Origin: Novosphingobium sp.
Lineage (GTDB): Bacteria; Pseudomonadota; Alphaproteobacteria; Sphingomonadales; Sphingomonadaceae
NCBI GenBank assembly: GCA_020848655.1
Contig: JADLHU010000115.1
Location: 11,899 to 75,898 of the forward strand
DNA: 64,000 bases
Reading direction: 5' to 3'
Part shown: positions 9,232 to 33,424 of the stretch, piece by piece
Layout of the letters: the number at the start of each line of letters is the position of its first letter
How positions within the stretch are numbered: position 1 is the first letter of the stretch
Translations under genes and position numbers: made by a program
The notes under the pieces: generated by a model
Seen by the model: the letters and a program-made list of their open reading frames with translations, nothing else
Told to the model about the DNA's origin: nothing
Database searches by the model: none

Positions 9232-11904
9232 TCAGAACGTCAGCGAGGCCGAGATCGACAGCGTGGTGCCCAGATCATAGGTGTTGAAATCGATCCGGTT
9301 GCCGGCGGTGGTCTGGAATTCCTGGTGGCGCGTGCCCAGCAGGTTGCGCGCTTCCAGCTTGAGTTCCATGTCCTGGCCGAACACCGGCATGCCTTCGCGT
9401 GCCACGAAATCGAGCTGGAAGCCGGGCTTCTCGATCACGTCGGGTTGCGGCGGCGTGCCGCGCAGGCCGCGGCTGACGACGCGCTTGCTGGCGTAGCTGA
9501 GCATGAGCGTCTGCTGCGAAAGCCGCTCGGTGTTCTCGAAGCCGAGTTGCAGGTTCACCAGGTGGTCGGACTGCCCGGTCAGCGCCGAGCCATCGCGGAA
9601 GTAGTCGGTGGCCAGCGATGAGGCGGCGGCGAAAACGGCCACGCTGTCGCCGTCGGTCACGCTCAGCTTCGACTTGGAGTAGGTATAGTTGACGATCGCC
9701 ACCGCGCGGCGATCCTGGAACCAGCCGCCGATCGGGGACAGGTCGAAATACTTCTGCGCTTCCACCTCGGCGCCATAAAGCTGGGCTTCGGGCGCGTTGG
9801 CATAGCTGGTGACGAGGTTGTCGCTCAGCAGGCTGACGAAGGCTTCGATCGGCCGCTTGATCTTCTTGTAGAACCCCGCGACCGACAGGCGCTGTTCGGG
9901 CGCGAAGTACCATTCGACGCGGGCTTCGCCGTTGTAGAGCGTACTGTCGGTCAGCAGCGGGTTGCCCAGGTACTGGCGGTTGCTTTCGGGATCGAAGTAC
10001 GGCTGGTAGATCAGTTCGCGGAACTGCGGGCGGGCGATCGTCTTGGATGCGCTGAGGCGCACTTGCAGGTCGGGCTGGATCTGCCAGGTCAGCGTCGCGG
10101 CCGGCAGCCAGTATTGCTTCTTCAGTTCGGTCCCGGCGATGGAAGGCGGCGTGAGGAACACCTGGATCGGTTCCACGCTCTGGCGCGCCCATTCAAAGCG
10201 CACGCCGGTATCGAGGCTGATCGCGTCGGTGATCTGCGCGTTGACTTTGGCATAGCCGGCCCAGTTGCGCAGCTTGGCGCGGAAGGCCGGGGTCGACTGG
10301 TCGGGTTCGATCAGGTCGATGCCAAGCTTTTCGACGAGGTTGGGCGCGAGCAGCAGGTCGGGCCGCAGCACCGAGACCGGCAGCAGGAAATCGCTGCCGG
10401 CGCGGAACAGGAACTGGCGGCGCGAGGCATCGCGGACCGTATCGCTGAACGCGCCGCCGATGGTGGCGGACCAGCCGGGCGCGATCTTGTAGCTGATATC
10501 GACGCCGCCCGACCACAGGTCCTCGTTGAGGTCCGAGAAGGTCACGCTGGCTTCGCCGTTGTTGCCGTTCAGCCGGTTGACGAAGAGGTTGCCATAGGGA
10601 TCGGCCGCCGAATTGGTGCGGACGTATTCGAACGAGGTCTGGTAGGGGGCTTCGCGCTGCGAATTGGCATAGCCGGCGCGCAAGTCGACCGACAGGTCGG
10701 CCAGCGGCTTGAGTTCGGCGACGAAGTGCGAATCGATCAACTGGCGCTCGAACCACGCGGTATCCTGTTGCAGGAAATCGGCGTCGGTCTGGTTGCGCTG
10801 GCCGATGCCATAGCGCGTCTGCTTGATCGTGTCGCGGATGTAGAGGTTGGTCCAGCGCAGCTTGTTCTCGCCGAATTCGAGGCCGAGACCGAGCAGGCCG
10901 TTGACGACGATGCGGTTGTCGGTGGTCACGCGCTCGAAATCGGTCTGCAACGTCGAAAGGTCGCTGCTGAACGAGGACTGCTGGATCGCGTCGCGGTTCT
11001 GCCACTTGTTGCTGAAGCCCGCCGCCGCGATCACGCCGAACTGCGCGCCGCCCAGGTCGAACGACTTGCCGGCCGAGAAGTTGAGCGAGAAGTTGGGCGG
11101 CAGGTTCGGCACGCGCTGCACGACCGCGCGGCTGAAGCGGACGAGCTGGGCCGCGACGGCCGAACTGTCGACCGTGCCATCGTTCAGCGATTGGCCGCTG
11201 GCGAAGAATGCCTTCAACGCGGGCGGCACGTCGCGGCTGCCGTTGTCGAAGCCGGTCCAGTCGCTTTTCGCGCCGTAGTAGCTGTAGCCGAACTGGCCGA
11301 TCGTCTCGGTGTTGCCGGCGATGCTGCCCCCGATGGTCAGGAAGGGATCGCGCGGAACGGACTTGGTGGTCAGGTTGATCACGCCGCCGCCGAACTCTCC
11401 GGGATAGTTCACCGAATAGCTTTTCTGGACGAGCGTGGAGGAAATGACACCGCTGGGGAAGATATCGAGCGGGACGACGCGGCGCAGCGGTTCGGGGCTG
11501 GGCAGCGGCGAGCCGTTGAGCAGCGCCAGCGAATAGCGATCGCCCAGGCCGCGCACATAGACGAGGCCCGAGCCGACGACGCTGAGGCCGGTGACGCGAC
11601 CCAGCGCACCGGCGATGTTGCCTTCGCCGGTGCGGGCGATCTCGGCGGTGGAGAGCACCGCGACGACCTGGTCCGAGGACTTGGCGAGGTTGCGGCTACG
11701 CAGGCCGGTGACGAGGATTTCGCCGGGAACCGATACTTCGACCTGTTCCTGTTCCTTCTCGGCCGGCGCCGGTTCGGCCACGGTGGGCTGATCGGCGGCC
11801 TGATCCGCGGGCAGGGCGGGTTCGGTCTGCGCGTAGGCGATGCTCGGCGCGATGAGCGCGGACGTGAAAAGTAGAGCGCTGGCGAGCCGCGACGACACGG
11901 TCAT
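9232..11904 (-). CDS. TonB-dependent receptor
   Basis: Signal peptide, TonB box 'EILVTG', plug 'VRGLGDRYS..LPSPEP.RRVVPLDIFP', C-terminal Phe. Confidence 0.93.
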   Translation of the reverse strand: MTVSSRLASALLFTSALIAPSIAYAQTEPALPADQAADQPTVAEPAPAEKEQEQVEVSVPGEILVTGLRSRNLAKSSDQVVAVLSTAEIARTGEGNIAGALGRVTGLSVVGSGLVYVRGLGDRYSLALLNGSPLPSPEPLRRVVPLDIFPSGVISSTLVQKSYSVNYPGEFGGGVINLTTKSVPRDPFLTIGGSIAGNTETIGQFGYSYYGAKSDWTGFDNGSRDVPPALKAFFASGQSLNDGTVDSSAVAAQLVRFSRAVVQRVPNLPPNFSLNFSAGKSFDLGGAQFGVIAAAGFSNKWQNRDAIQQSSFSSDLSTLQTDFERVTTDNRIVVNGLLGLGLEFGENKLRWTNLYIRDTIKQTRYGIGQRNQTDADFLQQDTAWFERQLIDSHFVAELKPLADLSVDLRAGYANSQREAPYQTSFEYVRTNSAADPYGNLFVNRLNGNNGEASVTFSDLNEDLWSGGVDISYKIAPGWSATIGGAFSDTVRDASRRQFLFRAGSDFLLPVSVLRPDLLLAPNLVEKLGIDLIEPDQSTPAFRAKLRNWAGYAKVNAQITDAISLDTGVRFEWARQSVEPIQVFLTPPSIAGTELKKQYWLPAATLTWQIQPDLQVRLSASKTIARPQFRELIYQPYFDPESNRQYLGNPLLTDSTLYNGEARVEWYFAPEQRLSVAGFYKKIKRPIEAFVSLLSDNLVTSYANAPEAQLYGAEVEAQKYFDLSPIGGWFQDRRAVAIVNYTYSKSKLSVTDGDSVAVFAAASSLATDYFRDGSALTGQSDHLVNLQLGFENTERLSQQTLMLSYASKRVVSRGLRGTPPQPDVIEKPGFQLDFVAREGMPVFGQDMELKLEARNLLGTRHQEFQTTAGNRIDFNTYDLGTTLSISASLTF

Positions 11905-11934
11905 CGGAATTCCCCCAAGATACAAATGGCAGGA

Positions 11935-11985: not shown

Positions 11986-13578
11986 TCAGGTGGTCGGCAG
12001 CGAGGTGCAATCGCCCGAATTGCCCGAACCGAAGTTCGCCGTGCTGCTGTTGCAGGTCCAGCCGGCGTACCAGGTGTCGCTGGCGTTGCGCACCGCGCCG
12101 ATCCAGGACGTGGTGTCGAAGAAGCTGGAAAGGCCCTTCGGGTCGGTCGCCGCCACGCCGCTTTCGTTGGCGCCGTTGATGAACAGGCTGGACAGCGTGG
12201 CGGTCAGCGCGTCGCTGTTGTTGTTGCTGCCCGCGCCGAACTGCGTGGTGACCTGGGCGGCGGTGTAGCTGCCGCTGCCGAGGTACTTGGTCGCGTTGCA
12301 CTGCATCGCCACCGAGCGCGCGGTGAGCGTGGCGGGCGTGGTGCCCGTACCGTTCATGCGCAGGCACTCGTTGTTCGGGGACACGATCAGGCCGTTGATC
12401 CAGGTCGTGTCGGAATTGCCGCGCAGCAGCACGCTGGCAAGATCGGCGCCTTCGTTGTTGCTGCTGACCTGGCGCTGGATGCCGGTGAAGTTGGCCACCT
12501 TCAGCTTGGTGCGGGGGGTGTCGCCCTCGTTGCCGTTGCTGTCGATTTCCATCAGCGCGTCGCCCGCGCCATCGCGCTGGAGCAGCAGCGCGTACTGCAC
12601 GTTCATCTGCGCGCCGGTATCGACGTCGAGGCTGTCGTCGTCGGCGCCGACGCTGATGTAGTATTTCATGTTCGGGCTGCCGCCGAACCATTCGGAGCCA
12701 TCGTCCGAGCTGTTGTAGCTCATGATGTGGTCAAGCTGCGTGCCGGTGCCGATGCCTTCGCCGGTCAGCGACTGCAATTCGACGTTCGACCCCAGGATGA
12801 AGCCCGAATAGCGGATCTGGACGTAGCTCATCTTGCCGGCGTTGTAGCTGTCGCTGGCGCCGCCGAAGCGTGCCGGATCGGCCGAACCTTCGGTCTGGCG
12901 TTCGCAGGTGCCGGCGGTGACGCTGCCGGTGGTGCAATCGGTCACGGGCGCGCGGCCCATCAGCACGATGCCGCCCCACTGGCCTTGCGAGGTTTCCGAA
13001 TTGATGCCCAGCACGTTGTCGCGGCTGGTGAAGATGATCGGCTTGGCGGCGGTGCCCACGGCGTTGATCTTGTTGCCGCGATTGACCGCGAGCCACGACT
13101 GGCCGGTGCCGCCGAACAGGATCACGCCCGGTTCGATGGTCAGCGTGACGTTGGTATCGGCGGTGATCGGGGCGGTGCAGCCCACGGTCGAGGAGGTGAA
13201 CGACGCGGTGGGGGCGGTGAAACCGCCATCGCAGCCCACATCGACGCGGCCCGGCAACTGGTAGAGCAGGCCGGGGAGCTTGGGCAGCGTGGAGGACGAG
13301 CGGATCAGCTTGGGCAGGCTGCACACGCGCCAGGTGCCGGTCGGGCCGGTGATGGTGCCGGCATCGGTCAGGCCTTGCGGGTCGGCGATGGTCGGGCAGC
13401 CGGCGGCGGGCGTTACCGTGGCACCGCCGGACGAAGTCGGCGTGGGCGTCGGCGTCGGGGCCGGGTTGTTGATGACGACGTCGCCGCCGGTGCCGGGCGA
13501 GGCGATGTCGCTCGGACCGCAACCAGCGAGCGCGAGCGCGCTACAGCCGACAAGCAGCAAGCCATGGATATTCTTCAC
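11986..13578 (-). CDS. Cys-rich surface lipoprotein, beta-helix-like (possibly ElpS-like)
   Basis: GTG start with GAGGGG RBS, lipobox LAGC, PT linker, motifs 'YVQIRYSG', 'DDGSEWFGG', 'DDDSLDVDTG'; ElpS similarity is inferred from context only. Confidence 0.75.
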   Translation of the reverse strand: MKNIHGLLLVGCSALALAGCGPSDIASPGTGGDVVINNPAPTPTPTPTSSGGATVTPAAGCPTIADPQGLTDAGTITGPTGTWRVCSLPKLIRSSSTLPKLPGLLYQLPGRVDVGCDGGFTAPTASFTSSTVGCTAPITADTNVTLTIEPGVILFGGTGQSWLAVNRGNKINAVGTAAKPIIFTSRDNVLGINSETSQGQWGGIVLMGRAPVTDCTTGSVTAGTCERQTEGSADPARFGGASDSYNAGKMSYVQIRYSGFILGSNVELQSLTGEGIGTGTQLDHIMSYNSSDDGSEWFGGSPNMKYYISVGADDDSLDVDTGAQMNVQYALLLQRDGAGDALMEIDSNGNEGDTPRTKLKVANFTGIQRQVSSNNEGADLASVLLRGNSDTTWINGLIVSPNNECLRMNGTGTTPATLTARSVAMQCNATKYLGSGSYTAAQVTTQFGAGSNNNSDALTATLSSLFINGANESGVAATDPKGLSSFFDTTSWIGAVRNASDTWYAGWTCNSSTANFGSGNSGDCTSLPTT

Positions 13579-13649: not shown

Positions 13650-13723
13650 GTGACAGTTTGTTTTCGTTATCGTGACGGTTTTCTTGCAATATTCGCGTCT
13701 ATAGTATGACGGATATATGACAA
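13650..13723 (-). promoter_or_regulatory. Pho box array upstream of the lipoprotein
   Basis: Minus strand TTGTCAT-ATAT-CCGTCAT (13706-13723), plus 11-bp-period half-sites CCGTCAC (13672-13678) and CTGTCAC (13650-13656). Confidence 0.75.
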
Positions 13724-13948: not shown

Positions 13949-14323
13949 ATGTCGATATCGCTGCTTCTCGCCAGCGCCCTGCTTGCCTCCCCCGCAACGC
14001 ATGTCGTCGCCAGCCCGGCGGACACCGATCGGGTCGAGGTGGCATATGATGCGCTGCGGGCCGGCCGGAACGATGCCGCCATCGCGCAACTGCGCGCCTC
14101 GGGCCTTGCCGCCGATGGTGATCCGGCGGCGCTGATCAACATGGGCACTGCCTATGCGCGGCTGGGCCGCCCTGACGCGGCCATGGCCTGCTTCAAGGCC
14201 GCCATGGCCAGCACCACGCGCTATGACCTGCAACTGGCGGACGGAAGCTGGGTCGATTCGCGCCTGGCCGCGCGCCGCGCCGCCGAAGCACTGGACCGCA
14301 GCGCCGCGCTCGCCATGCGCTGA
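13949..14323 (+). CDS. Small secreted TPR-like protein
   Basis: Signal peptide, TPR-like 'AALINMG.AYARLGR.D.A..CF..A'; GGGAGA RBS. Confidence 0.75.
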   Translation: MSISLLLASALLASPATHVVASPADTDRVEVAYDALRAGRNDAAIAQLRASGLAADGDPAALINMGTAYARLGRPDAAMACFKAAMASTTRYDLQLADGSWVDSRLAARRAAEALDRSAALAMR

Positions 14324-14439: not shown

Positions 14440-14457
14440 ACGTCACACGGTTGTCAT
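14440..14457 (+). promoter_or_regulatory. Pho box upstream of the virB operon
   Basis: ACGTCAC-ACGG-TTGTCAT, 35 nt before the GTG start at 14493. Confidence 0.65.
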
Positions 14458-14492
14458 CTTTCGTGGCAAATAGGAGCCCGAAGGAGGGCGCG

Positions 14493-15149
14493 GTGAGTCG
14501 CAGTTCGGCCAATGTTTCGGTAATGACTGTCGCGGCCCCTGTGCTTTTCGCGGCGGGTCTTGCCTTGGGCGTGGCCACGGCGCGGGCGGACGTGATGGAA
14601 ATCGGCGGCGGCGGTCATGTCTGGATCGCCGGTGGCCCTATCGCCGCGCAGCCTGCCACGCAGCCCCTGGCGCTGGCCGCGGCCGGTTCGGAAACGCCGG
14701 CGGAACCTGTCGGCGGTGCGCCGGATCCCGCTGCGCTGACCCAGGTCGATGCCGCCGCCGGTCCCGCCGCATGGCGCGATCACGTGGCGCAGATGGCTGC
14801 CAAGTACGATGTCAGCCCGGCGCTGCTCGAAGCGCTGGTCTGGCAGGAAAGCCGCTGGAACACCGGTGCGGTGTCTCCGGCCGGCGCGCGCGGGCTGGCG
14901 CAGTTGATGCCCGGCACGGCACGCCAGATGGGCATCGATCCGGCCAATCCGCACGCCAACCTTGAAGGCGGCGCGCGCTATCTTCGCATGCAGCTCGATG
15001 CGTTCGGCGGCGATGTGGAGAAAGCGCTGGCCGCCTATAATGCCGGGCCGGGCCGCGTTATCCGCGCCGGTGGCATTCCCGCCATTCGTGAGACACGGGA
15101 CTATGTCGCTTCGATCATGACGCGATTGTCCAATCCAGTTCGGAGATGA
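14493..15149 (+). CDS. virB1: Lytic transglycosylase (VirB1-like)
   Basis: SLT motifs QES, 'GLAQLMP.T', 'AAYNAGPG'; GGAGG RBS; overlaps virB2 start. Confidence 0.85.
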   Translation: MSRSSANVSVMTVAAPVLFAAGLALGVATARADVMEIGGGGHVWIAGGPIAAQPATQPLALAAAGSETPAEPVGGAPDPAALTQVDAAAGPAAWRDHVAQMAAKYDVSPALLEALVWQESRWNTGAVSPAGARGLAQLMPGTARQMGIDPANPHANLEGGARYLRMQLDAFGGDVEKALAAYNAGPGRVIRAGGIPAIRETRDYVASIMTRLSNPVRR

Positions 15150-15472
15150 ATTCGATGCGTTCCATCAGGGCAGCCGGCATCGCGGCGCTTTTCGCCGCCA
15201 TGCTTCCCCAATCGGCGTTCGCGCAGGCGGTGCAGGGCGCGAACCCGCAAGGCTCCGGCCCGATCGTCGCTGCGCTGGGCTGGTTGCAGGGCACGCTGCT
15301 GGGCAATGTCGCCACCGCCGTCGCGGTCATGGCGGTGGCCGCCGTGGGCTTCATGATGCTGACCGGGCGGCTCAACTGGCGCTTCGGCGCCACGGTGATC
15401 ATCGGCTGCTTCATCCTGTTCGGCGCGGGGGCCATCGTTTCGGGCATCCAGTCCGCCGCTGGCGCGGGCTGA
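15146..15472 (+). CDS. virB2: VirB2/TrbC pilin
   Basis: Signal peptide ending AFA-Q, two hydrophobic segments, 'G.MML.GR..W', 'I.FGA..IV'. Confidence 0.9.
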   Translation: MNSMRSIRAAGIAALFAAMLPQSAFAQAVQGANPQGSGPIVAALGWLQGTLLGNVATAVAVMAVAAVGFMMLTGRLNWRFGATVIIGCFILFGAGAIVSGIQSAAGAG

Positions 15473-15478
15473 GCGGCG

Positions 15479-15760
15479 GTGGACCTTATCCGCCACCCCG
15501 TGCATCGCGCGCTGACGCGGCCGCAGATGTTCGCGGGCGTGACCTACAGCTTCTTCATCATCAATGCGGCGGTCACCACCGAAGTCTTCCTGATTTCCAA
15601 GAGCTTCCTGGCGCTGCCCGTGGCGCTGGCGATCCACGCGGTGGGCTATCTCGCGTGCCTGCGTGAACCGCGCGTGTTCGATCTGTGGATCACCCGGGTC
15701 AGCAAGTGCCCCAGGGTCCGCAACTGGCAGCGCTGGGGCTGCAACAGCTATGCGCCGTAA
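15479..15760 (+). CDS. virB3: VirB3
   Basis: 'ALTRPQMFAGV', two TM segments, 'EPR.FDLW', C-terminal 'NSY.P'. Confidence 0.92.
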   Translation: MDLIRHPVHRALTRPQMFAGVTYSFFIINAAVTTEVFLISKSFLALPVALAIHAVGYLACLREPRVFDLWITRVSKCPRVRNWQRWGCNSYAP

Positions 15761-15772
15761 GGGGTGGAACGA

Positions 15773-18202
15773 ATGGTCAGCATGAAAGTCGGCCTGCCCT
15801 GGGCGCGCAAGGAAGCGCTGGCGGGCGATCGCCTGCCCTACCTGGCGCTGATCGACGAGAACACCGTGCTGCTGCGCGATGGTTCGGTCATGGTCTCGCT
15901 GCTGGTGCCGGGGCTGGCCTTCGAAACCGCCGACAGCGACGAGCTGAACGCCCACACCGCCACGCGCGAGGTGCTGTTGCGCAGCTCGCTCGATGCACGC
16001 TTCGTGCTCTATCACCACGTGATCCGCCGCCGTGTTCATGTGGAACTGGACAGCCGCTTCGACGATCCGCTGGCCGGGCACATCGATGCGCGCTGGCGCG
16101 AAAAGCTGGCCGGCGGGGCGCTTTACGTGAACGACCAGTTCGTCACGCTGGTGCGCCGTCCGGCGCGCGGCAAGGCGGGCTGGGCGGAAAAGCTGTCGCG
16201 CCTGTGGAAGCAGCGCGGCGCCGCGCAGACCGAGGCCGATCCCGCCGACATTCGCACGCTGCGCGCGGCGGCTGGCGCGATGATCGCCTCGCTTTCGTCC
16301 TATGGCGCGCGCCTGCTGGGCGATTACCAGGGCGCGGGCGGCACCTGTTCCGAAGTGCTCGAAATGCTCTCGGCGCTTTATAACGGCGAAATGCGCCCGG
16401 TGCGCCGCCCGGCGGACGATGCCGACATCGGCCGGATGCTGCCTTATCGCCGGATCAGCTTCGGCCTGGACGCGATGGAACTGCGCGGCGCGGGTGGGGC
16501 GGGCGAAAGCAGCTTCGCCTCGCTCGTCAGCCTGAAGGACTATCCCGACAGCACCGCGCCCGGGCTGACCGACGCGCTGCTGCGCCTGCCATGCGAACTG
16601 GTGCTGAGCGAAAGCTACGCCCCGTCAGACCGGCAAGTCTCGCGCGAGCGGATCGACCTGGCCATCCGCCGGCTCAAGTCCGCCGACGAGGAAGCCATGG
16701 CCGAACGGCGCGAGATGATGCTGGCGCGCGATTCGCTGGGCACCGGCGCGGTGGCGTTCGGCGATCATCACCTGTCGATCCTCGTGCGCTCCAACCGGCT
16801 CGATGCGCTGGACGACGTGACCGCGATGTGCGCCGCCGCGCTGGCCGATGCCGGCGCCGTCGCGGTGCGCGAGGACGTGAACCTGGAGCCGGGCTTCTGG
16901 GGCCAGTTCCCCGGCAACGAAGGCTATCTGGTACGCCGCGCGCTGATCTCCAGCGCCAACATGGCCTGCTTCGGCTCGCTCCACGGCTTTGCCATGGGGC
17001 AAGCCAGCGGCAACCACTGGGGCGATGCCGTCACGCTGTTGCAGACCACCAGCGCGACGCCGTTCTTCTTCAACTTCCACCAGGGCGATCTGGGCAATTT
17101 CACCGTCATCGGCCCTTCGGGTTCGGGCAAGACCGTGGTGATGAACTTCCTGGCCGCGCAGGCGCAGAAGTTTTCCCCGCGCACCATCCTGGTCGACAAG
17201 GATCGCGGCGCCGAAGTCTTCGTGCGCGGCATCGGCGGGCGCTACAGCCGCGTCGCCGCCGGGCACCCCACCGGGTTCAATCCGATGGCACTGCCCGACA
17301 GCGCCGCCAACCGCGCTTTCCTGCGTGATTGGCTGGGCGTGCTGCTGGCGGCGAAAGGCCCCGAGGAAATGGCGACGATCGCGGGCGCGGTCGATGCCGC
17401 CTATGCCAACGATCCCGCGCTGCGCCGGCTTACGCATTTTCGCGAGCTGCTGGCCGGATCGCGCCGGCCCGAACCGGGCGACCTCGCCAGTCGGCTGGAA
17501 GCCTGGATCGCCGATGGCGAACATGGCTGGCTGTTCGACAATGCCGAGGACAGGCTTGACCTTTCGGCCCGCACATTGGGCTTCGACATGACCGCGCTGC
17601 TGGAAACGCCGCGCCTGCGCACGCCGGTGATGATGTACCTGTTCCACCGCATCGAGGAGCGGCTGGACGGCGAGCCGACGATGATCCTGATCGACGAGGG
17701 CTGGAAGGCGCTGGACGACGAGGTTTTCGCCGCGCGCATCCGCGACTGGCTGAAGACGCTGCGCAAGCGCAACGCGCTGGTCGGCTTCGCCACGCAATCG
17801 GCGCGCGATGCGCTTGACAGCCGCATCGCCACCGCGCTGGTCGAACAGACCGCGACGATGATCTTCATGCCCAATTCCCGCGCCCGCCCCGAAGACTATT
17901 GCGAGGGCTTCGGGCTGACCGCGCACGAACTGGACCTGATCCGCACGCTGCCCGCGCAAAGCCGCTGCTTCCTGATCCGCCAGAGCGATGCCTCGGTGGT
18001 GGTGCGGCTGGACCTTTCGGGCATGCCCGAAGTGCTGGCGGTGCTTTCGGGCCGCGAAAGCGTGGTCCGCCGGCTCGATGCCTTGCGCGCCGAATATGGC
18101 GATGCGCCATCGGCCTGGTATCCGGCGCTGACCGGCGAGATCTGGCCGGGTGACGCGGACGATGCCGCCGACGCCGCGCTGTGGACCGAGGCCGCCGAAT
18201 GA
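15773..18202 (+). CDS. virB4: VirB4 ATPase
   Basis: Walker A GPSGSGKT, 'DKDRG', Walker B ILIDEGW, 'RKRN..FATQS'; start may be 15764, 15773 or 15782. Confidence 0.95.
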   Translation: MVSMKVGLPWARKEALAGDRLPYLALIDENTVLLRDGSVMVSLLVPGLAFETADSDELNAHTATREVLLRSSLDARFVLYHHVIRRRVHVELDSRFDDPLAGHIDARWREKLAGGALYVNDQFVTLVRRPARGKAGWAEKLSRLWKQRGAAQTEADPADIRTLRAAAGAMIASLSSYGARLLGDYQGAGGTCSEVLEMLSALYNGEMRPVRRPADDADIGRMLPYRRISFGLDAMELRGAGGAGESSFASLVSLKDYPDSTAPGLTDALLRLPCELVLSESYAPSDRQVSRERIDLAIRRLKSADEEAMAERREMMLARDSLGTGAVAFGDHHLSILVRSNRLDALDDVTAMCAAALADAGAVAVREDVNLEPGFWGQFPGNEGYLVRRALISSANMACFGSLHGFAMGQASGNHWGDAVTLLQTTSATPFFFNFHQGDLGNFTVIGPSGSGKTVVMNFLAAQAQKFSPRTILVDKDRGAEVFVRGIGGRYSRVAAGHPTGFNPMALPDSAANRAFLRDWLGVLLAAKGPEEMATIAGAVDAAYANDPALRRLTHFRELLAGSRRPEPGDLASRLEAWIADGEHGWLFDNAEDRLDLSARTLGFDMTALLETPRLRTPVMMYLFHRIEERLDGEPTMILIDEGWKALDDEVFAARIRDWLKTLRKRNALVGFATQSARDALDSRIATALVEQTATMIFMPNSRARPEDYCEGFGLTAHELDLIRTLPAQSRCFLIRQSDASVVVRLDLSGMPEVLAVLSGRESVVRRLDALRAEYGDAPSAWYPALTGEIWPGDADDAADAALWTEAAE

Positions 18203-19410
18203 GCGCGTGCGATCAGGTTGCGGCGCAGGCTTCGGCCGGTGTCGCCCCCGCGCTCAGGGCGGTGGACTGCCTGGCCGGGGAAACCACGGCGGCGGCGTTC
18301 GGCCGATTGTTCGGCAGCGGCGGGGCGCTGCTGCCCGCGCTGACCATCATTCTCACGCTCTATATCGCCTTCTTCGCGATCTCGCTGCTTACCGGGCGCA
18401 GCCGGCTGGGCATTTCGGCGCTGACCCCGCGCATGCTGACGCTGGGCATGGTGCTGACCTTTGCGACAAGCTGGGTCGCCTATCAGGGCGTCGTCTGGAA
18501 CCTGACCGTGGGCGCGCCCGATCAGATCGCGGGCGTGCTGATGGGCGCGAGCGGGTCTGCCACGCAGCTTTTCGCCGATCGCATCGACATGGTCTTCGCC
18601 GCCATCGCCGACGCCGCAAATGCCGGCAAGGAAACCGCGCAGGCCGCCGCGCAAGGGGCGGAAGGCGCGAAGGCCGCCGTCGCATCGGGCAGCTTCACCC
18701 CCGGCAACCTGATGTGGCTGGGCGCATTGCTGCTGCTGCTGGGCACCGTGGGCGTATTGGTGACGGCGCGCATCGCGCTGGCCGTTCTGCTGGCGCTGGG
18801 TCCGGTGTTCCTGGTTTTCGCGCTGTTTCCGGGCACCCGCGGGCTGTGCGCCGGCTGGCTGCGCGGACTGGTGCTGACCGCGATCACGCCGCTGTTCGTG
18901 GTGGTGGGCGGCGGCATCGTGCTGGAACTGCTGGTTCCCGTGGTCGGCGCGCTGCAGGGGCCGGAAGGTGTCAACGGCCGCGCCGCGCTGGCATTGTTCC
19001 TGCTCGCCTCGGTCCACGTCGCGCTGATGGCCATGGTCATGCGCGTGGCCGGCACCATCGTGGCGGGCTGGCAGGTGTTCGGCCTGGCCGCAGAGGGCAG
19101 GGATCGCGCCGATCCGGCCAGCGCGCCGGCCCCGGCGCTGGGCGGGGCGGCCTATGCCGCCGGCCAGCCGTTTGCCGCATCGGCTGCCAGCCGCACCGCG
19201 GTGGTGATGCAGGGGGCCGATGGCGCCGCTGCCGCCGCCGGATCGTCCGCGCCCGCGCCTGCCTCCACGCGCGGCGGGCGCACCATCGTTCACCAGACAT
19301 CGGGGGCAACCGCGCCTCCGCTTCCACCGCTTGTCCGCCAGCGCGCGCGCGGTATCGGCAGCCGTTTTGCCGCACCGCAGCCGGGCCGGACAAGGGAGAT
19401 TATCCGATGA
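18199..19410 (+). CDS. virB6: VirB6/TrbL inner-membrane component with low-complexity C-terminal tail
   Basis: Polytopic, 'ALAVLLALGPVF..LF..TR..GW'; ATGA coupling with virB4 and virB9. Confidence 0.85.
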   Translation: MSACDQVAAQASAGVAPALRAVDCLAGETTAAAFGRLFGSGGALLPALTIILTLYIAFFAISLLTGRSRLGISALTPRMLTLGMVLTFATSWVAYQGVVWNLTVGAPDQIAGVLMGASGSATQLFADRIDMVFAAIADAANAGKETAQAAAQGAEGAKAAVASGSFTPGNLMWLGALLLLLGTVGVLVTARIALAVLLALGPVFLVFALFPGTRGLCAGWLRGLVLTAITPLFVVVGGGIVLELLVPVVGALQGPEGVNGRAALALFLLASVHVALMAMVMRVAGTIVAGWQVFGLAAEGRDRADPASAPAPALGGAAYAAGQPFAASAASRTAVVMQGADGAAAAAGSSAPAPASTRGGRTIVHQTSGATAPPLPPLVRQRARGIGSRFAAPQPGRTREIIR

Positions 19411-20213
19411 TCCGCAAGCTGTTGTTCGCCGCCACGCTGCGGGCCTCCACTGCTCATGCCGCGCCGCCACACGATCCGCGCCTGGCATCGCGCCTCTATC
19501 GTCCCGACGAAGTGGTGCGCGTCGATGGCCGGATGGGGGTGCAGGCCTCAATCGTCTTTGCGGATGACGAGCATATCGAGAACGTGGCCGTGGGCGATTC
19601 CGAAAGCTGGCAGATCACGCCCAACAAGCGCGCCAACCTGCTGTTCGTGAAGCCGCTGACCGCCAGCGCCCGCACCAACATGACGGTGGTGACCGACCAG
19701 CACACCTATTTCTTCGACCTGATCGCCGCGCCCGGCGCCACACCGGTCTATGCGCTGCGCTTTACTTATCCCGAAGCGCCCAGGCCCGCCGCCGCGCCGC
19801 AGCAGGCGGGGGCGGCACTGACCGACGCCGAACGTGGCGCGCTGGACGGGCAGCGCCCGGTCGATCCCGCCGCGCTCAACTTCGCATGGCGGCGGCAGGG
19901 TTCGGACAAGCTGCTGCCCGCGCGCATCTATGATGACGGGCAGGCGACGTACGTGATCTGGGCGGCCGGCGCGCCGATCCCGGCGATCCTCGTGCGCAAT
20001 GAAAAGGGCGATGAAGGCCCGGTTAATTTCGCGGTGCGCGGCGATACCATCGTGATCGACGACGTGCCCGGCCTGATCGTGCTGCGGTCTGGCAAGGCCA
20101 GCGCCACGCTGGTCAACCAGCGCCCGGTTTCCACGCGGGCAACGCCGCCCGCCAGTGCAACGGTGGCCGCCGCCGCCCAGCCTCCGGTTCCCTCCAGCGT
20201 GCAGAGCCAGTGA
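19407..20213 (+). CDS. virB9: VirB9/TrbG core-complex protein
   Basis: 'Y.PDEVV', 'E.I..VA.GD...W', 'LFVKP', 'TN.TV.T', 'IYDDG..TY'. Confidence 0.92.
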   Translation: MIRKLLFAATLRASTAHAAPPHDPRLASRLYRPDEVVRVDGRMGVQASIVFADDEHIENVAVGDSESWQITPNKRANLLFVKPLTASARTNMTVVTDQHTYFFDLIAAPGATPVYALRFTYPEAPRPAAAPQQAGAALTDAERGALDGQRPVDPAALNFAWRRQGSDKLLPARIYDDGQATYVIWAAGAPIPAILVRNEKGDEGPVNFAVRGDTIVIDDVPGLIVLRSGKASATLVNQRPVSTRATPPASATVAAAAQPPVPSSVQSQ

Positions 20214-21310
20214 CCATGCGCAACACCCGCAACCTTGCCGAACGCCTCGATCCGGCGAACGACCGCGACCCGCGCGAGGGTGCCGGCGCGGAAGTGATCG
20301 ACCTGGCCACGCGCACAGTGCTGCCCGCTGTCGCCCAGCGCAAGCCGCGCTCGGACGGGGCGGCGCTGGCCGGCGGCATCGCCGTGGTCGCGCTGCTTGG
20401 CGCGGCCACGTTCTGGAGCCTCAACGCCAGCCGCAGCGAACAGAGCGGGCCGGCGCAGAACCAGCCCGAGCAGGCCCCCGCCGTGCCGCCACAGGCGATC
20501 ACCGTGCCGCAGCCGGCCGCGCCTGCCGCTGCGCCGGGCCCGCAAGCCGCGCCCGCGCCGCAGCCGGTGCTGGCCGCGCCGCCGCAGACCGCGATCGCCA
20601 CCGCGCCGCGCGCCAATCCGGCATCGTCGCCCACCGTGGTGTTCGATGCCAGCGCGCTGCCCGTGCCGCTTGCGCCCGGCGTTCCGGTCACGCCCGGCGG
20701 CAATGGCAACGATGATTTCGCCGCCCGCATCGGCGGTGTCGGCGGCGCCAAGGCGGTGGCCACGGCAAACATCGATCCCAAGACCACGGTCACGCAGGGC
20801 ACGCTGATCCCGGCGGTGCTGGAAACCGCGATCGATACCGACGTGCCCGGCTATGTCCGCGCCGTGGTCAGCACCGATGTGCGCTCGTTCGATGGCAGCC
20901 GCGTGCTGGTGCCGCGCTCCTCGCGGCTGATCGGCCAGTACAAGAGCGGGCTTCAGGCGGGGCAGAAGCGCGCCTATGTGATCTGGACGCGGCTGATCCG
21001 CCCCGACGGCGTTTCGGTGGACATCGGATCGCCCGCCGTCGGCTTTTCGGGTGAGACGGGGCTGGCCGGCAAAGTCGAATCGCATTTCTTCGAACGCTTC
21101 GGTTCGGCCATGCTGCTGTCGGTGATCGGCGGCCTGTCCGCGATCGGTGGCAATGCGGGCGTGATCGTGGCGGGCAGCGGCCAGTCTGCGGCGGCGGCGG
21201 CCGTGGGGCAAAGCGGCCAGATCAGCCCCACCGTGCGCGTCCGCCAGGGTGAGCCGATCCGCGTGTTCACCGCGCGCGATCTCGATTTTTCGCGCGTCGC
21301 CCGCCAGTGA
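20210..21310 (+). CDS. virB10: VirB10/TrbI core-complex protein
   Basis: TM, Pro-rich linker, 'GT.IPAVLETAI.TD.PG', 'W.RLIRPDG', 'HFFERFGSA', 'RDLDF'. Confidence 0.94.
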   Translation: MTMRNTRNLAERLDPANDRDPREGAGAEVIDLATRTVLPAVAQRKPRSDGAALAGGIAVVALLGAATFWSLNASRSEQSGPAQNQPEQAPAVPPQAITVPQPAAPAAAPGPQAAPAPQPVLAAPPQTAIATAPRANPASSPTVVFDASALPVPLAPGVPVTPGGNGNDDFAARIGGVGGAKAVATANIDPKTTVTQGTLIPAVLETAIDTDVPGYVRAVVSTDVRSFDGSRVLVPRSSRLIGQYKSGLQAGQKRAYVIWTRLIRPDGVSVDIGSPAVGFSGETGLAGKVESHFFERFGSAMLLSVIGGLSAIGGNAGVIVAGSGQSAAAAAVGQSGQISPTVRVRQGEPIRVFTARDLDFSRVARQ

Positions 21311-22320
21311 CGGCGGCCGTCCACGCGCTGCCGACCGAGGCGTTGCCGGTGGCCGCGCCGCGCAGCGTCTATCTCGATGCCTATCTCGCGCCGCTGCGGC
21401 CCTGGCTCGATCGCGAAAGCGTGACCGAGATCCTGGTCAACCGCCCCGGCGAGATCTGGGTGGAAGACGCCGAGCATCCCGGCATGCAGTGCATCGCGCT
21501 GCCGGCGATCGACGCGCAACTGCTCCAGCGGCTGGCCGAACAGGTCGCGCGCATCAGCCACCAGGGCATCAATCGCGAACATCCGCTGCTGGCCGCGACG
21601 CTGCCGGCCGAAAACGGGCAGGGCGGCGCGCGTATCCAACTGGTCGGCCCGCCGGCCACGCGTGCCAACTGGGCGCTGGCGATCCGCCGCCACCGTCTGC
21701 TCGACCTGCCGCTCGACGCTTATGATCGCGGGCCGATCGTGGCGGCGGCGCAAGCGCCGATGCCCGATGCCGAGGCCGAGCCGATCGCCTACTTGCGCGA
21801 GGCGATCCGGCGGCGGCGCACCATCCTGATTTCGGGCGGCACGTCCACCGGCAAGACCACGTTCCTCAACGCCATGCTGCACGAAATCCCGCGCCACGAA
21901 CGCGTCGTGCTGGTCGAAGACACCGCCGAACTGCGCCTGCCGGGCGCCAACGGCGTGGGCCTGATCGCGGTGAAGGGCGAACTGGGCGAGGCCAAGGTTT
22001 CCGCCAACGAACTGCTGCAGGCGGCGCTGCGGCTGCGGCCCGACCGGATCGTGCTGGGCGAATTGCGCGGCAGCGAGACGGTGAGCTTCCTGCGCGCCAT
22101 CAACACCGGCCACCCCGGCTCGTTCTCCACCGTCCACGCCAACACCCCGCGCGGCGCGCTCGAACAGATCGCGCTGATGGCGATGCAGACCGGCATTGGC
22201 CTCACTCGCGCCGAAACGCTGGAATATGCGGCCTCGGTGATCGATGTCGTGGTCCAGCTCGATCGCATCGACGGCAAGCGCGGCATTGCCGCCATCGCGC
22301 AGTCCGCCGCGCTGGTCTGA
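21307..22320 (+). CDS. virB11: VirB11 ATPase
   Basis: 'EILVNRPGE', Walker A GGTSTGKTT, 'ED..EL', 'LRLRPDRI.LGELRG', 'NTGHPGS.ST.HAN'. Confidence 0.95.
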   Translation: MTAAVHALPTEALPVAAPRSVYLDAYLAPLRPWLDRESVTEILVNRPGEIWVEDAEHPGMQCIALPAIDAQLLQRLAEQVARISHQGINREHPLLAATLPAENGQGGARIQLVGPPATRANWALAIRRHRLLDLPLDAYDRGPIVAAAQAPMPDAEAEPIAYLREAIRRRRTILISGGTSTGKTTFLNAMLHEIPRHERVVLVEDTAELRLPGANGVGLIAVKGELGEAKVSANELLQAALRLRPDRIVLGELRGSETVSFLRAINTGHPGSFSTVHANTPRGALEQIALMAMQTGIGLTRAETLEYAASVIDVVVQLDRIDGKRGIAAIAQSAALV

Positions 22321-22321
22321 C

Positions 22322-23821
22322 CTAACTGAGATCCGCGCCGGCCGGCAGCAGGCGGGCTTCGGGTTGCAGCCCCAGCCATTCGGCCAACTGGCGCAAGTCC
22401 TTTTCGATGCCTTCGCTGTAGAGCGGGTGCAGCGGATCGCGCACGGCCAGCACCAGCTTGCCGTCCTCGCGCAGCAGCGCGCTGTTCGATAGCGATTGCG
22501 CGGCGCAGCCGCTGAACTTGCGGCACAGGCGCGCGGCAAGGCCCCAGGTTACCGCTTCGCGCAAGTCCTCGGCCGGGGCCAGCCGCGCCAGGCCTTCGGG
22601 AATGGTCGTGCGCCCGGTATTGGCCAGCGCGGCCATGGCCAGCAGGCCGCGCCCGGCATCGTCGATGCCGATCCAGCGCTTGCGCAGCGCCCAGCCGGCG
22701 GATTCCTCGGCGCGCAAGTTGGGTTCGATGCGCATCGCGGCCAGCGACATCATCGTCGCGCCCAGCCGCAGCGGTTCGCGTCCCGGCCCATCGCCGGCGC
22801 TGGCGGCGGCAGTCCACCCGGCCACCATGGTGCCGATCGAAGCGGGCGCGCCCATGGCCTCGGCAAAGGCGGCGATGCCGGCAACGATCGGGCTTTGCGC
22901 CTGCGTGGCGGGATCGAGCCGGCCATAAAGCAGCCCTTCGCGCAGCCCCCAGGCGGAGAACACCAGCGAGGACGGCGCGATTTCACGCAGCAGCACCGCC
23001 AGCAGCGCGGCGGCATCGGGCAGGGTGGCCAGCCGCGATCCCGCCAGGCGCGGCATCCGCTCCAGCGGCTTGCCCTTGGCCAGGCGCTGGCACAAGTTCA
23101 GCGCCACGTCGGGGGCCAGTTCGAAGCCGTGGGGATCGTCCAGCGGCCAGTTCATTTCGAACATCGCCACCCGCGCCAGCGCGCGCCACGATCCGCCCAC
23201 CAGGTAGAGCGGCAAATCCCGGCCATCCTGCCAGTTCGCCTCGCGCAATGTGCCGCGCACGGCGGCGGCAAAGCTGGTCGGACCGTGGCTGCGCATCGCG
23301 GCCAGGCGCAGTGTGCCGAAGGGCGTGGTGATGCCGTGTTCGCAGCGATCGCCATCGCAGACGATCAGTTCCAGGCTGCCGCCGCCCAGATCGGCGACCA
23401 CGCCGCGCGCGCCCGGAAAGGCGGCGATCACGCCCATGGCGCTGGTGATCGCCTCTTCCTCGCCCGAAAGCAGGCGCGGCCTGAGGCCCAGCGCGGCGAC
23501 GGCTTCGAGGAATTTCGGCCCGTTGGTGGCATCGCGCACGGCGGCGGTGGCCACCGTTTCCACGTCGGTCACACCCATGACGCGCAGCAGCGTGGCGAAG
23601 CGGGCGAGCGCCGCCAGCGCGGCTTTCATCGCCTTGCCCGAAAGGCGGCCGGTTTCGCCAAGGCCCCGGCCCAGCCGGGCGGTGACTTTCTCGTTCAGCA
23701 GCACCGTGGGCGAGCGCGGCGGGCCGCCATAGACGACGAGCCGGACGGTGTTCGACCCGATGTCGATGATGGCAAGCTGTTCGCGCATGGCGGCGCTGTT
23801 TAGGAGCTTGCGAAGGAACAT
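22322..23821 (-). CDS. ppx: Ppx/GppA exopolyphosphatase
   Basis: 'IDIGSNTVRL', 'ATAAVRDA.NG', 'SGEEEA', 'DLGGGS.E', 'GLREG'; alternative start 23788. Confidence 0.92.
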   Translation of the reverse strand: MFLRKLLNSAAMREQLAIIDIGSNTVRLVVYGGPPRSPTVLLNEKVTARLGRGLGETGRLSGKAMKAALAALARFATLLRVMGVTDVETVATAAVRDATNGPKFLEAVAALGLRPRLLSGEEEAITSAMGVIAAFPGARGVVADLGGGSLELIVCDGDRCEHGITTPFGTLRLAAMRSHGPTSFAAAVRGTLREANWQDGRDLPLYLVGGSWRALARVAMFEMNWPLDDPHGFELAPDVALNLCQRLAKGKPLERMPRLAGSRLATLPDAAALLAVLLREIAPSSLVFSAWGLREGLLYGRLDPATQAQSPIVAGIAAFAEAMGAPASIGTMVAGWTAAASAGDGPGREPLRLGATMMSLAAMRIEPNLRAEESAGWALRKRWIGIDDAGRGLLAMAALANTGRTTIPEGLARLAPAEDLREAVTWGLAARLCRKFSGCAAQSLSNSALLREDGKLVLAVRDPLHPLYSEGIEKDLRQLAEWLGLQPEARLLPAGADLS

Positions 23822-23834
23822 GGCAAATCGTCGG

Positions 23835-26000
23835 TCAGACGTTTCCACGGCGAAGCGACAGCTTGGGCACCTTGCGCCCACTGGTCAGCGCCGCGCCGCG
23901 GCCGGAAAGCGATGGATTGGTCATGAAATAGCGGTGGAGGTTGAACGGTTCGTCGCCCGGCTCCATCCGTTCCCATTCGCCGTCCGGGCCGAGCAGCCAG
24001 CTCTGTTCGGTATCGAGCAGGTTGGCGAGCATGACCTGGCTGAGGACCTGATCGTGGACGGTGCGGTTGCGGATCGGCACCAGCAGTTCGACGCGCCGAT
24101 CGAGATTGCGGCTCATCCCGTCGGCCGAGGAGATATAGACCCGCGCGCGGCGATTGGGCAGGTCGGCGCCGTTGGCGAAGGCCCAGATGCGGCTGTGTTC
24201 CAGAAAGCGGCCGATCACCGACTTGACGCTGATGTGTTCGGACAGGCCGTCCACGCCGGGGCGCAGGCAGCAGATGCCGCGGATCACCAGCGTGATGCTG
24301 ACCCCGGCCTGGCTGGCGGCATAGAGCCGGTCGATCAGGTCGGGATCGGTCAGCGAATTCATCTTGGCCCAGATCATCGCCGGCTTGCCCGCCTGGGCAT
24401 GGGCGATTTCGCGGTCGATGCAATCGTACAGCCGGTCACGCAGGCCGATGGGGGAAATCGCCAGCAGTTCGGTGCGCTTGGGTTCGACATAGCCGGTGAT
24501 GAAGTTGAACAGGCGCCCGGCATCGCGCCCCATGCGCGGATCGGCGGTGAAGAAGCTGAGGTCGGTATAGATGCGCGCGGTGACCGGGTGATAGTTGCCG
24601 GTGCCGAAATGGCAGTACGTGCGATAGCCATCGCCTTCGCGCCGCACCACCATCGAAACCTTGGCGTGGGTTTTCCAGTCGACGAAGCCGTAGATCACCT
24701 GCACCCCGGCGCGTTCCAACTGCGACGCCCAGAGCAGGTTCTGCTCCTCGTCGAAGCGGGCCTTCAGTTCGACCACGGCGGTGACCGACTTGCCGGCCTC
24801 TGCCGCCGCGATCAACTGGGCGATCACCGGCGACTGGTGCCCGGCGCGGTACAGCGTCTGCTTGATCGCCACGACATCGGGATCGGACACGGCCTGGCGC
24901 AGGAAATCGACCACCACTTCGAAACTTTCGTAAGGGTGGTGGATGACGATGTCCTTTTCCCGGATCGCGGCGAAGCAATCGCCGTCGTGTTCCAGGATGC
25001 GTTCGGGATAGCGCGGGCTATAGGGTTCGAACTTCAGGTCGGGGCGGTTTTCCTCGACGATGGCGGCCAGCCCGCTGATGCCGATCAGGCCTTCGGTCTT
25101 GATGACGATGGCATGGTCAAGCCCCAGCTTGTTGCGCAGCAGCGCTTCGGCCGCCGGATCGAATTCGCCCTGGAGCTGGAGCAGGATCACCTGGCCGCGC
25201 CGCCGCCGCTGGATCGCGGTGCGATAGTAGCGGACCAGATCCTCGGCATCCTCCTCGATCTCGATGTCGCTGTCGCGCAGCACGCGGAACACGCCGTGGC
25301 CCAGCACGCGAAAGCCGGGGAACAGCACTTCGGCATTGCGGCGCAGCAGTTCCTCGACGCTGATATACGTCACCTGCTCGCCCGCCGCGCCGCTGCCGGG
25401 CAGGCGGATGAAGCGCGGCAGCGCCTGCGGGATCAGCACCATTTCCATCAGTTCGGCATTGTCGGCGCTGCGCGCCAGCGAGAACAGGATGGCGATGCCC
25501 TGGTTGGCGGTGAACGGGAACGGGTGCGCCGGATCGATCGCCTGCGGGGTGATGACGGGCATCACGTGTTCGCGGAAATAGTCCTTCAGCCAGCGGGTTT
25601 GCGCGGCGTCCAGCCGTTCCTTGCCGGCGATGTGGATGCCCTTTTCGCCCAGCCGGCGCTTCAGGTCGCGGCGCGTTTCCTGCTGCGCCAGTTCCAGTTC
25701 GATCACGGCTTCGTGGATGGCGCCAAGCTGCTGCGACGGGGTGAGGCCGTCGGTGGAGATTTCCTCGATCCGGCGGCGCACCTGGCCCGCCAGCCCGGCG
25801 ACGCGGACCATCAGGAATTCATCGAGGTTGCTGCCCGAGATCGACAGGAAGCGCAGCCGTTCCAGCAGCGGATAAAGCGGATTGCGCGCTTCGGCGAGCA
25901 CGCGCTGGTTGAAGGCCAGCCAGCTCAGTTCGCGGTTGAAAAAGCGTTCTTCCGGTCCGGCGGGAAGCCCGATTTCGGTCTGCGCGTCGCCCCGGCTCAT
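23835..26000 (-). CDS. ppk1: Polyphosphate kinase 1
   Basis: 'NRELSWL.FN.RVL', 'HPYESF', 'ELKARFDE', 'KTHAK', 'GTGNY', 'RFLEHSR'; GGAG RBS before 26000. Confidence 0.97.
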   Translation of the reverse strand: MSRGDAQTEIGLPAGPEERFFNRELSWLAFNQRVLAEARNPLYPLLERLRFLSISGSNLDEFLMVRVAGLAGQVRRRIEEISTDGLTPSQQLGAIHEAVIELELAQQETRRDLKRRLGEKGIHIAGKERLDAAQTRWLKDYFREHVMPVITPQAIDPAHPFPFTANQGIAILFSLARSADNAELMEMVLIPQALPRFIRLPGSGAAGEQVTYISVEELLRRNAEVLFPGFRVLGHGVFRVLRDSDIEIEEDAEDLVRYYRTAIQRRRRGQVILLQLQGEFDPAAEALLRNKLGLDHAIVIKTEGLIGISGLAAIVEENRPDLKFEPYSPRYPERILEHDGDCFAAIREKDIVIHHPYESFEVVVDFLRQAVSDPDVVAIKQTLYRAGHQSPVIAQLIAAAEAGKSVTAVVELKARFDEEQNLLWASQLERAGVQVIYGFVDWKTHAKVSMVVRREGDGYRTYCHFGTGNYHPVTARIYTDLSFFTADPRMGRDAGRLFNFITGYVEPKRTELLAISPIGLRDRLYDCIDREIAHAQAGKPAMIWAKMNSLTDPDLIDRLYAASQAGVSITLVIRGICCLRPGVDGLSEHISVKSVIGRFLEHSRIWAFANGADLPNRRARVYISSADGMSRNLDRRVELLVPIRNRTVHDQVLSQVMLANLLDTEQSWLLGPDGEWERMEPGDEPFNLHRYFMTNPSLSGRGAALTSGRKVPKLSLRRGNV

Positions 26001-26049
26001 CTCGACTCCTGCATCATCCACCACATGGGGTTCCCGATCCGACGGAGAT

Positions 26050-26067
26050 GTTACAGTGGCATGACGA
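26050..26067 (-). promoter_or_regulatory. Pho box upstream of ppk1
   Basis: Minus strand TCGTCAT-GCCA-CTGTAAC. Confidence 0.6.
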
Positions 26068-27549: not shown

Positions 27550-27552
27550 GGC

Positions 27553-29820: not shown

Positions 29821-29871
29821 GATAACCCCCCTGGGTCGGTTGTTGTGGTGAGGGGCGATTAGGCCGCCGTT

Positions 29872-33404: not shown

Positions 33405-33424
33405 GACATTGGGGGGCTGATCGC

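Follow-up and report, generated by a model that had tools for sequence, protein, structure and literature searches.

A 64,000-nucleotide stretch of Novosphingobium sp. DNA (assembly GCA_020848655.1, contig JADLHU010000115.1, positions 11,899 to 75,898; hereafter the window) contains an operon for a reduced type IV secretion system (T4SS), with genes in the order virB1-2-3-4-6-9-10-11 at positions 14493-22320 of the + strand (Pfam). Our analysis indicates that this system is probably a PhoB-induced two-step exporter of periplasmic proteins that resembles the Ptl system of Bordetella pertussis and takes the place of a type II secretion system (T2SS). More tentatively, we propose that a seven-protein T4SS without VirB5, VirB7, VirB8 and VirD4 may be the general phosphate-starvation secretion route of many sphingomonads, a T2SS-exchangeable, minimal pilin piston for folded periplasmic proteins that is switched by the pilin and VirB11 alone in some lineages.

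In the mechanism that we favor, phosphorylated PhoB would induce virB together with elp, which encodes an ElpS-like lipoprotein, and its neighboring gene for a TonB-dependent receptor (TBDR). Cargo would cross the inner membrane by the Sec or Tat route and fold in the periplasm, so that a coupling protein would not be needed. VirB4, VirB11, VirB3 and VirB6 would then assemble a short, tip-less VirB2 pilus that drives the cargo through a VirB9-VirB10 ring, as has been proposed for Ptl. The cargo would consist of enzymes that serve ElpS-TBDR scavenging, namely an ElpS-releasing protease and phosphatases (PhoX in some strains), and possibly the lipoprotein. Periplasmic export is favored because VirB11 is kept, VirB5 is absent and the system exchanges with the T2SS; cytoplasmic cargo is unlikely because there is no coupling protein.

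The virB operon and its missing components

Gene families in the window were called with Pfam, with all eight operon genes matching above the cut-off (Table 1), and the operon was compared with the best 80 of 462 related loci, which are mostly from organisms named Novosphingobium, have VirB4 proteins that are 75-87% identical, and in several cases end at contig edges. Adjacent genes overlap by four bases at five junctions (B1/B2, B4/B6, B6/B9, B9/B10 and B10/B11). In 81 of 81 VirB4 sequences the motifs Walker A, Walker B and ATQS are intact; among 66 VirB11 sequences, all keep Walker A and 65 keep Walker B. VirB9 aligns with TrwF of R388 over residues 16-238. VirB10 matches TrwE of R388 (E-value of 5e-37); the alignment takes in both of the outer-membrane pore helices, which are separated by a shorter loop. 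An outer-membrane VirB9-VirB10 ring is plausible from these alignments because VirB10 keeps both pore helices and VirB9 keeps both of its domains. The virB1 gene is dispensable; it is present in 28 of the 80 loci, and in many others virB2 lies directly 3' of the Pho box described below. The source genome, which is 88% complete, holds a single VirB4 according to a genome search.

With these overlaps, the operon has no room for virB5, virB7 or virB8. The estimated gap between genes exceeds 120 bases in 1 of 78 loci for virB4-virB6, 1 of 75 for virB6-virB9 and 0 of 73 for virB9-virB10. A scan of the + strand between positions 13900 and 22400 for a small VirB7-like lipoprotein open reading frame found none, and the same scan was positive in two of two canonical control operons (in the virB6-virB8 gap). 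The scan also gave matches in 19 of 71 loci from relatives; these strings are Ser/Arg-rich and out of frame, and we read them as noise. The small TPR protein encoded upstream of virB1 was also considered as a substitute for VirB7, and was ruled out because its gene persists where the T4SS is missing. These results agree with the initial annotation of this DNA, which had described a tightly coupled operon with intact ATPase motifs and no space for the three missing genes.

Genome-wide searches were conducted on an even sample of 160 genomes from the family, each at least 95% complete (the family draw). Carriers of the system, defined by a VirB4 of the Pho-boxed type at 74% identity or more, account for 57 of the 160. 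The VirB8 family has no match anywhere in 35 of the 57 carrier genomes and the VirD4 family none in 30 of them, closed genomes included, and VirB5 was found in none of four closed carriers. Positive controls for the VirB8 and VirB5 searches matched in relatives' genomes, including the VirB5 control; searches confined to the source genome had no such control. Therefore, VirB5, VirB8 and VirD4 are not supplied in trans.

No integrase, relaxase or coupling protein was detected among the window proteins that were scanned (scans of 15 and 31). ARAGORN returned a single tRNA call in the window, an odd tRNA-Asp(atc) at 20440-20536, which lies inside the virB10 coding sequence and which we take to be spurious. 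The initial annotation had stated that VirD4, relaxase, integrase and att/tRNA sites are absent from the window, and this holds. Beyond the window one correction is needed, since the source genome does contain, on another contig, an RlxS-type relaxase and a TraG/VirD4 protein truncated by the contig end. These two genes belong to a separate, unrelated RlxS-type element. That mobile element (G000:C47; L096:842-10189) comprises an RlxS/DUF3363 relaxase, a lytic transglycosylase and the truncated TraG. Of the components of a conjugative MPF-T (mating-pair formation, type T) system, the operon has VirB4 and the VirB9-VirB10 core and lacks VirB5, VirB7, VirB8 and a cognate coupling protein and relaxase. 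The features of an integrative conjugative element (ICE), namely an integrase, an att/tRNA site and patchy, foreign-looking DNA, are likewise absent, and the chromosomal neighbors are fixed. The system is almost certainly non-conjugative.

A conserved Pho box precedes the operon

The motif GTCAY-N6-GTCAY is perfect upstream of the operon in 69 of 75 testable loci, whereas it turned up in 2.6% of the 1500 random windows sampled and in a single one of 1500 shuffles. Five of the 80 loci were excluded from this test, two that are cut upstream and three without a virB1 or virB2 match. The box keeps its place ahead of virB2 where virB1 is missing. There are 16 perfect motif sites in the entire source genome, and five of them precede pstS, a phosphate porin (porin O/P), a PhoB-like regulator, elp and virB1. 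We take this motif to be the Pho-box consensus, and its identity here is anchored on the pstS and porin O/P sites. Pho-like matches with at most one mismatch are not above chance in the window alone (11 compared to 8.75 expected), so the case for the Pho box rests on conservation and on genome-wide rarity and placement. On these grounds, the site that had earlier been called Pho-box-like is upheld. With a box at its promoter, the same motif at pstS of the source genome and PhoB present, the virB operon is very likely to be under PhoB control; we infer its induction. In a single study of biofilms, four metatranscriptome contig sets gave flat cover across all 30 bins, including the divergent elp/TPR promoter, and DNA carry-over is possible in these data.

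The source genome also encodes a second, degenerate PhoB-like regulator (G000:C19; L093:743-1417) that has its own perfect box and lies downstream of pstSCAB-phoU-phoB. Similar regulator genes are found near elp or virB11 in four related loci (L107, L271, L274 and L275). Elsewhere in the window, three Pho-like boxes with one mismatch each (29916-29966) lie between a TonB receptor/phosphodiesterase pair (26197-29850, - strand) and a divergent transglutaminase-amidoligase/ATP-grasp cluster (30012-36795, + strand).

Mutual exclusion and probable replacement between the T4SS and the T2SS

In the family draw, 76 of 160 genomes have GspD and 57 have the T4SS, and both systems occur together in 1 genome as compared to 27 expected. 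Among the 109 family genomes with elp, 50 have the T4SS only, 57 have GspD only, 1 has both and 1, a partial match, has neither; elp is found in 1 of the 28 genomes that have neither system. A draw of 120 genomes from the genus gives a similar picture, with 44 T4SS only, 12 GspD only, 2 both and 0 neither among 58 genomes with elp, and elp in 0 of 39 genomes with neither system. The only secretin of the source genome is of the Tad type (Tad/Cpa pilus).

The two systems also occupy equivalent positions. In T2SS loci, elp homologs head elp-TBDR-gspC..N clusters, a layout observed in the three such loci that were examined (L101-L103). In genome G261 (locus L133), elp, the receptor and the genes from virB1 onward all share one orientation, which is the Caulobacter layout with virB replacing gsp. 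Genome G171 has the order TBDR-elp|TPR-ppk-ppx with no virB genes between and a T2SS elsewhere, whereas the congeneric genome G083 carries the T4SS but lacks GspD.

The promoters behave in a corresponding fashion. We scored gspC promoters with a matrix built from the virB boxes, using the 95th percentile of background as the threshold. A Pho-like site above this threshold precedes gspC in 13 of 16 T2SS-only genomes that have elp (a single clade accounts for 12 of these) and in 0 of 5 genomes without elp, and it is not found in G261, where elp adjoins the T4SS. Conversely, a virB box with at most one mismatch is kept in all 10 family genomes in which elp is not linked to virB, but in 1 of 6 without elp. 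The Pho box thus tends to follow whichever secretion system accompanies elp. By our count there are about four apparently separate pointers to exchange (the deep split in the family, the clade in the genus, G171 and G261).

Selection, related operons and split operons

Median pairwise dN/dS ratios are 0.11-0.34 for the vir genes compared to 0.17 for ppk1, and virB2 has the lowest median of the vir genes (0.11). The GC content of the operon is host-like (0.70 compared to 0.67). Stops in seven virB2 alignments are natural ends one residue early; one virB9 alignment contains a stop, and locus L019 has a 545-base gap between virB6 and virB9. The operon is intact and under purifying selection. An apparent loss of virB11 in five loci was considered as decay and rejected, with the gene being found elsewhere at 86-89% identity in five of five genomes tested. 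A check of synteny and dN/dS had been called for at the outset, and it reveals a fixed gene order and orthologs that are not decaying. Together with the genome-wide lack of VirB8 and VirD4 matches in many carriers, this conservation and selection supports the earlier view of a domesticated, non-conjugative system.

Related operons form a graded series by VirB4 identity. Canonical operons with VirB5 and VirB8 have VirB4 at 39-40% identity, a sister group with VirB8 and without VirB5 at 50-57%, and a VirB8-less group that mostly lacks the Pho box at 54-70% (L111-L117, L238 and L247-L249); the Pho-boxed group completes the series. Because rooting the VirB4 tree with a TrbE outgroup is unreliable (long branch), we read the tree from the operons that have both VirB5 and VirB8; it then suggests a stepwise loss of VirB5, VirB7 and VirD4, followed by loss of VirB8 and then by gain of the box. 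The sister group is chromosomal, with the order virB(1)-2-3-4-6-8-9-10-11 and no virB5 or virD4 in the operon (L083-L092, L118, L236 and L237). A DUF1800 gene comes after the operon in L083, and in L092 the genes that follow encode repeated proteins that look secreted. Having VirB8, this sister system is nearer to the Ptl gene set and is a candidate second two-step exporter. One VirB8-less copy (L089:4852-12647, genome G023) has apparent frameshifts in virB2, virB4 and virB9, for which decay or assembly error is possible.

In three genomes the operon is split, such that the box, virB2 and virB11 stay beside elp/TPR while the remainder and a second virB2 lie elsewhere (L270:8593-9875, L271:5439-6800, L272/L273 and L274:6429-7707; in G255 across a contig break). 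The relocated virB1-B10 parts mostly lack a box. Three boxless examples (L035:761-2710, L072:5488-8250 and L073:4554-8292) lie beside ABC-transporter genes that by eye resemble those for sulfate uptake, and a rewiring of these copies to sulfur starvation is possible.

Neighboring genes

The gene order TBDR-elp | TPR-(virB1)-B2-B3-B4-B6-B9-B10-B11 | ppx-ppk is fixed in the 80 loci, and the placement of the operon between a Pho-boxed lipoprotein/TonB module and ppx-ppk1, recognized in the initial annotation, is therefore conserved.

Table 1. Coordinates of the operon, its Pho boxes and neighboring features in the window.
Feature	Position	Strand	Basis and occurrence
TonB-dependent receptor paired with elp, CC0171-like	9232..11907	-	Pfam; 56/80 loci
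ElpS-like lipoprotein (elp), LAGC lipobox at residues 17-20	11986..13575	-	sequence
Pho box before elp	13706..13721	-	perfect match
Small TPR protein, signal-peptide-like N-terminus	13949..14323	+	TPR matches weak, below cut-off; 61/80 loci
Pho box GTCACACGGTTGTCAT before virB1, GTCAC-N6-GTCAT direct repeat, 11-bp period	14442..14457	+	
virB1, lytic transglycosylase (SLT)	14493..15149	+	PF01464, E 2e-25
virB2, pilin	15146..15472	+	PF04956
virB3	15479..15760	+	PF05101
virB4, ATPase	15773..18202	+	PF03135, TIGR00929 above cut-off
virB6, polytopic membrane protein, Ala/Pro-rich tail	18199..19410	+	PF04610, sequence
virB9, both domains	19407..20213	+	PF03524
virB10	20210..21310	+	PF03743
virB11, traffic ATPase	21307..22320	+	TIGR02788 above cut-off
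ppk1-ppx	22322..26048	-	Pfam; 47/80 and 45/80 loci
PhoX alkaline phosphatase, PKD-like domain, twin-arginine-like lipoprotein signal	38674..41133	+	PF05787, E 2e-128

The Pho box of elp is present with at most one mismatch in 56 of 59 loci. On the basis of synteny, lipobox position and size, elp appears to be orthologous to elpS (CC0170) of Caulobacter. An alignment-based model of the lipoprotein has a predicted local distance difference test (pLDDT) score of 90.5, compared to 32 for a single-sequence fold, and predicts a Cys-rich, mainly beta-strand fold that would form in the periplasm. A Foldseek search with this model yielded no match at E<=0.001, weak beta-helix matches alone, and no close solved structure. 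The lipoprotein domain repeats 2-5 times in many proteins of 900-2400 amino acids (5133 clusters, E<=0.001).

The co-oriented TPR gene, which had been overlooked in the initial annotation, travels with the elp-TBDR module and is also present in loci without the T4SS (L102, L106-108 and L136). On the other side, ppk1-ppx is a conserved neighbor that stands outside the machine; a one-mismatch box at 26050-26065 beside it is poorly kept (at most one mismatch in 10 of 42 relatives).

PhoX of the type encoded in the window occurs in 24 of the 160 family genomes, 8 with the T4SS only, 13 with GspD only, 1 with both and 2 with neither. Its gene lies directly 3' of virB11 in three loci (L007, L058 and L243) and shortly 3' of a divergent gspD in two accessory T2SS clusters (L234:5147-11356 and L235:5941-11065). 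The linked genes with export signals are those for the lipoprotein (lipobox), the TPR protein (signal-like N-terminus) and, in the three loci, PhoX; each of these is at most a candidate cargo.

Weighing the two-step exporter against alternative explanations

Several observations weigh against a two-step exporter that replaces the T2SS. The reduced architecture did not arise specifically for phosphate, because the wider VirB8-less group is mostly boxless and in several genomes coexists with GspD. There are few independent evolutionary switches. An rpoB tree of 90 genomes from the genus draw (120 in total) places all GspD carriers in one clade; an independent-pair test of T4SS versus T2SS gave a median p of 1, and that of T4SS with elp gave p values of 0.06-0.125, an association also explained by physical linkage. 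In G240 and G224, two genomes with elp and without GspD, the virB box carries two mismatches. Nine of the carriers are without elp. Both systems occur together in three genomes; the GspD match is weaker and divergent in two of these, and the third has 6% contamination. We know of no described Gram-negative T4SS that works without VirB7 and VirB8. PhoX, suggested as cargo in the initial annotation, is a candidate in some strains and cannot be the universal cargo, given that the window type is present in 9 of 57 carriers. Lastly, Caulobacter ElpS gets to the surface without the T2SS, which is required for its release alone, and the authors of that study propose that a T2SS-secreted protease releases it (PMC2996285). 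By analogy, since ElpS reaches the surface there without the T2SS, what is exported directly here may not be the lipoprotein but a protease or phosphatase.

We weighed four other explanations. The foremost, though unlikely, is a PhoB-induced importer, in which a retractile pseudopilus like that of Helicobacter ComB supplies phosphorus by drawing extracellular DNA or other phosphate polymers into the periplasm. The Pho box at virB, a nearby nucleotide pyrophosphatase/phosphodiesterase gene, and the ComEC (two contig-end matches) and DprA families of the source genome are all consistent with it, and ComB too is described as lacking VirB5 and VirD4 (PMC12857230). However, ComEC and DprA are unspecific, since among 14 control genomes they also match in 10 and 11, respectively. 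ComB has no VirB11, a protein that is conserved in the present system and whose gene split operons retain behind the box along with virB2, and importing would leave both the GspD exclusion and the swap at the elp locus unexplained. Of the two functions put forward in the initial annotation, export of periplasmic or lipoprotein cargo is accordingly favored by the T2SS exclusion and by the positional and promoter swap, whereas capture of DNA or organic phosphorus has no specific support. Next in order, and also improbable, is a factory for pili or surface structures that would serve attachment and biofilm formation in phosphate starvation without secreting cargo. The genes that split operons retain under the box are exactly those for the pilin and for VirB11, the lowest dN/dS belongs to VirB2, and Trw of Bartonella is reported as an adhesive system without VirD4 (PMC12857230). 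The same source describes multiple copies of VirB2 and VirB5 in Trw, whereas the VirB5 tip protein is absent here; moreover, the source genome already has a Tad/Cpa pilus secretin, and the exclusion of the T2SS would be unexplained.

A PhoB-controlled machine of some other function is a third and likewise slight prospect, with the T2SS exclusion being a product of lineage history, that is, one ancestral T2SS loss and later linkage to elp. The single GspD clade of the genus, the independent-pair results and the boxless relatives that coexist with a T2SS would all follow from such a history. Against it stand the contrast between G171 and G083, the L133 layout, and the fact that gain of the gspC box and loss of the virB box track elp even when it is unlinked. 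The last explanation, a remnant or part of an ICE that is decaying or completed in trans, has been largely refuted and is very improbable. A preprint takes the Erythrobacter copy of the cluster as part of an ICE (10.1101/2025.11.19.689285), and the source genome has a relaxase and truncated TraG elsewhere. But dN/dS ratios and intact motifs, host-like GC content, fixed chromosomal neighbors, the many carriers without VirB8 or VirD4 matches, and the vertical inheritance reported in PMC4919336 all argue otherwise. A PhoB-induced two-step exporter is therefore the explanation that we prefer.

Implications

If this explanation is correct, the system would be the smallest functional Gram-negative type IV machine known to us, and it would mean that a machine which takes over nothing from the cytoplasm can do without VirB7 and the VirB8 arches. 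It would offer a harmless, culturable model for how Ptl-type systems load periplasmic cargo. It would also exemplify the displacement of one family of secretion systems by another within a single locus and regulon. The T4SS in 57 of 160 sampled sphingomonad genomes would be re-read as serving phosphorus scavenging, not gene transfer. A literature search, whose coverage excluded most subscription journals, found no functional study of the cluster and no paper giving it this role. What the present analysis adds is genome-wide counts of the exclusion, the tracking seen at the promoters, the description of split operons and an account of how far phylogeny supports the pattern.

Comparison with known systems

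The operon shares homologous VirB9, VirB10 and ATPases with R388 Trw and pKM101 Tra and, unlike these, has no VirB5, VirB7, VirB8, VirD4 or relaxase. Among systems without VirD4, Ptl exports periplasmic cargo, ComB imports DNA and Trw makes adhesive pili, as outlined in PMC12857230. Per that source, ComB of Helicobacter pylori resembles the present system in being chromosomal and non-conjugative and in lacking VirD4 and VirB5, but it imports DNA with a set (VirB2-4 and VirB6-10, including VirB7 and VirB8, and no VirB11) that differs from the one found here; the ComEC of the source genome is a shared but unspecific feature.

A vertically inherited T4SS cluster has been described in 14 Erythrobacter genomes (PMC4919336), and a preprint lists the gene order virB10-9-6-4-3-2-SLT-TPR and reads the cluster as an ICE (bioRxiv 10.1101/2025.11.19.689285). 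This core T4SS is very probably the same cluster as the one described here. The accessible portions of both papers suggest gene transfer or an ICE and do not mention that subunits are absent, that a Pho box is present or that the T2SS is excluded.

Caulobacter crescentus has the layout elpS-cc0171-gspC..N, and the LAGC lipobox of its ElpS is also at residues 17-20 (PMC2996285). Its PhoB regulon, as listed in supplement 4 of PMC11208175, comprises 47 genes, among them elpS, the receptor and gspD/E/G/I, with several hypothetical genes and none annotated as virB. Both organisms therefore have a lipoprotein and a TonB receptor beside a secretion system in the phosphate regulon. The secretion system is a T2SS in Caulobacter and a reduced T4SS here.

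Ptl has a VirB8 homolog and VirB11. Like Ptl, the present system has VirB11 and no VirD4 or VirB5, and PMC12857230 describes Ptl cargo as reaching the periplasm by the general secretory pathway and a piston-like pilus as having been proposed. Ptl has VirB7 according to the same source, whereas homologs of both VirB7 and VirB8 are missing here, so the system would work like Ptl and yet stands outside the Ptl type on these two proteins. Ptl exports one dedicated toxin; the system described here would instead export what are probably nutrient-scavenging proteins, under the control of a Pho box.

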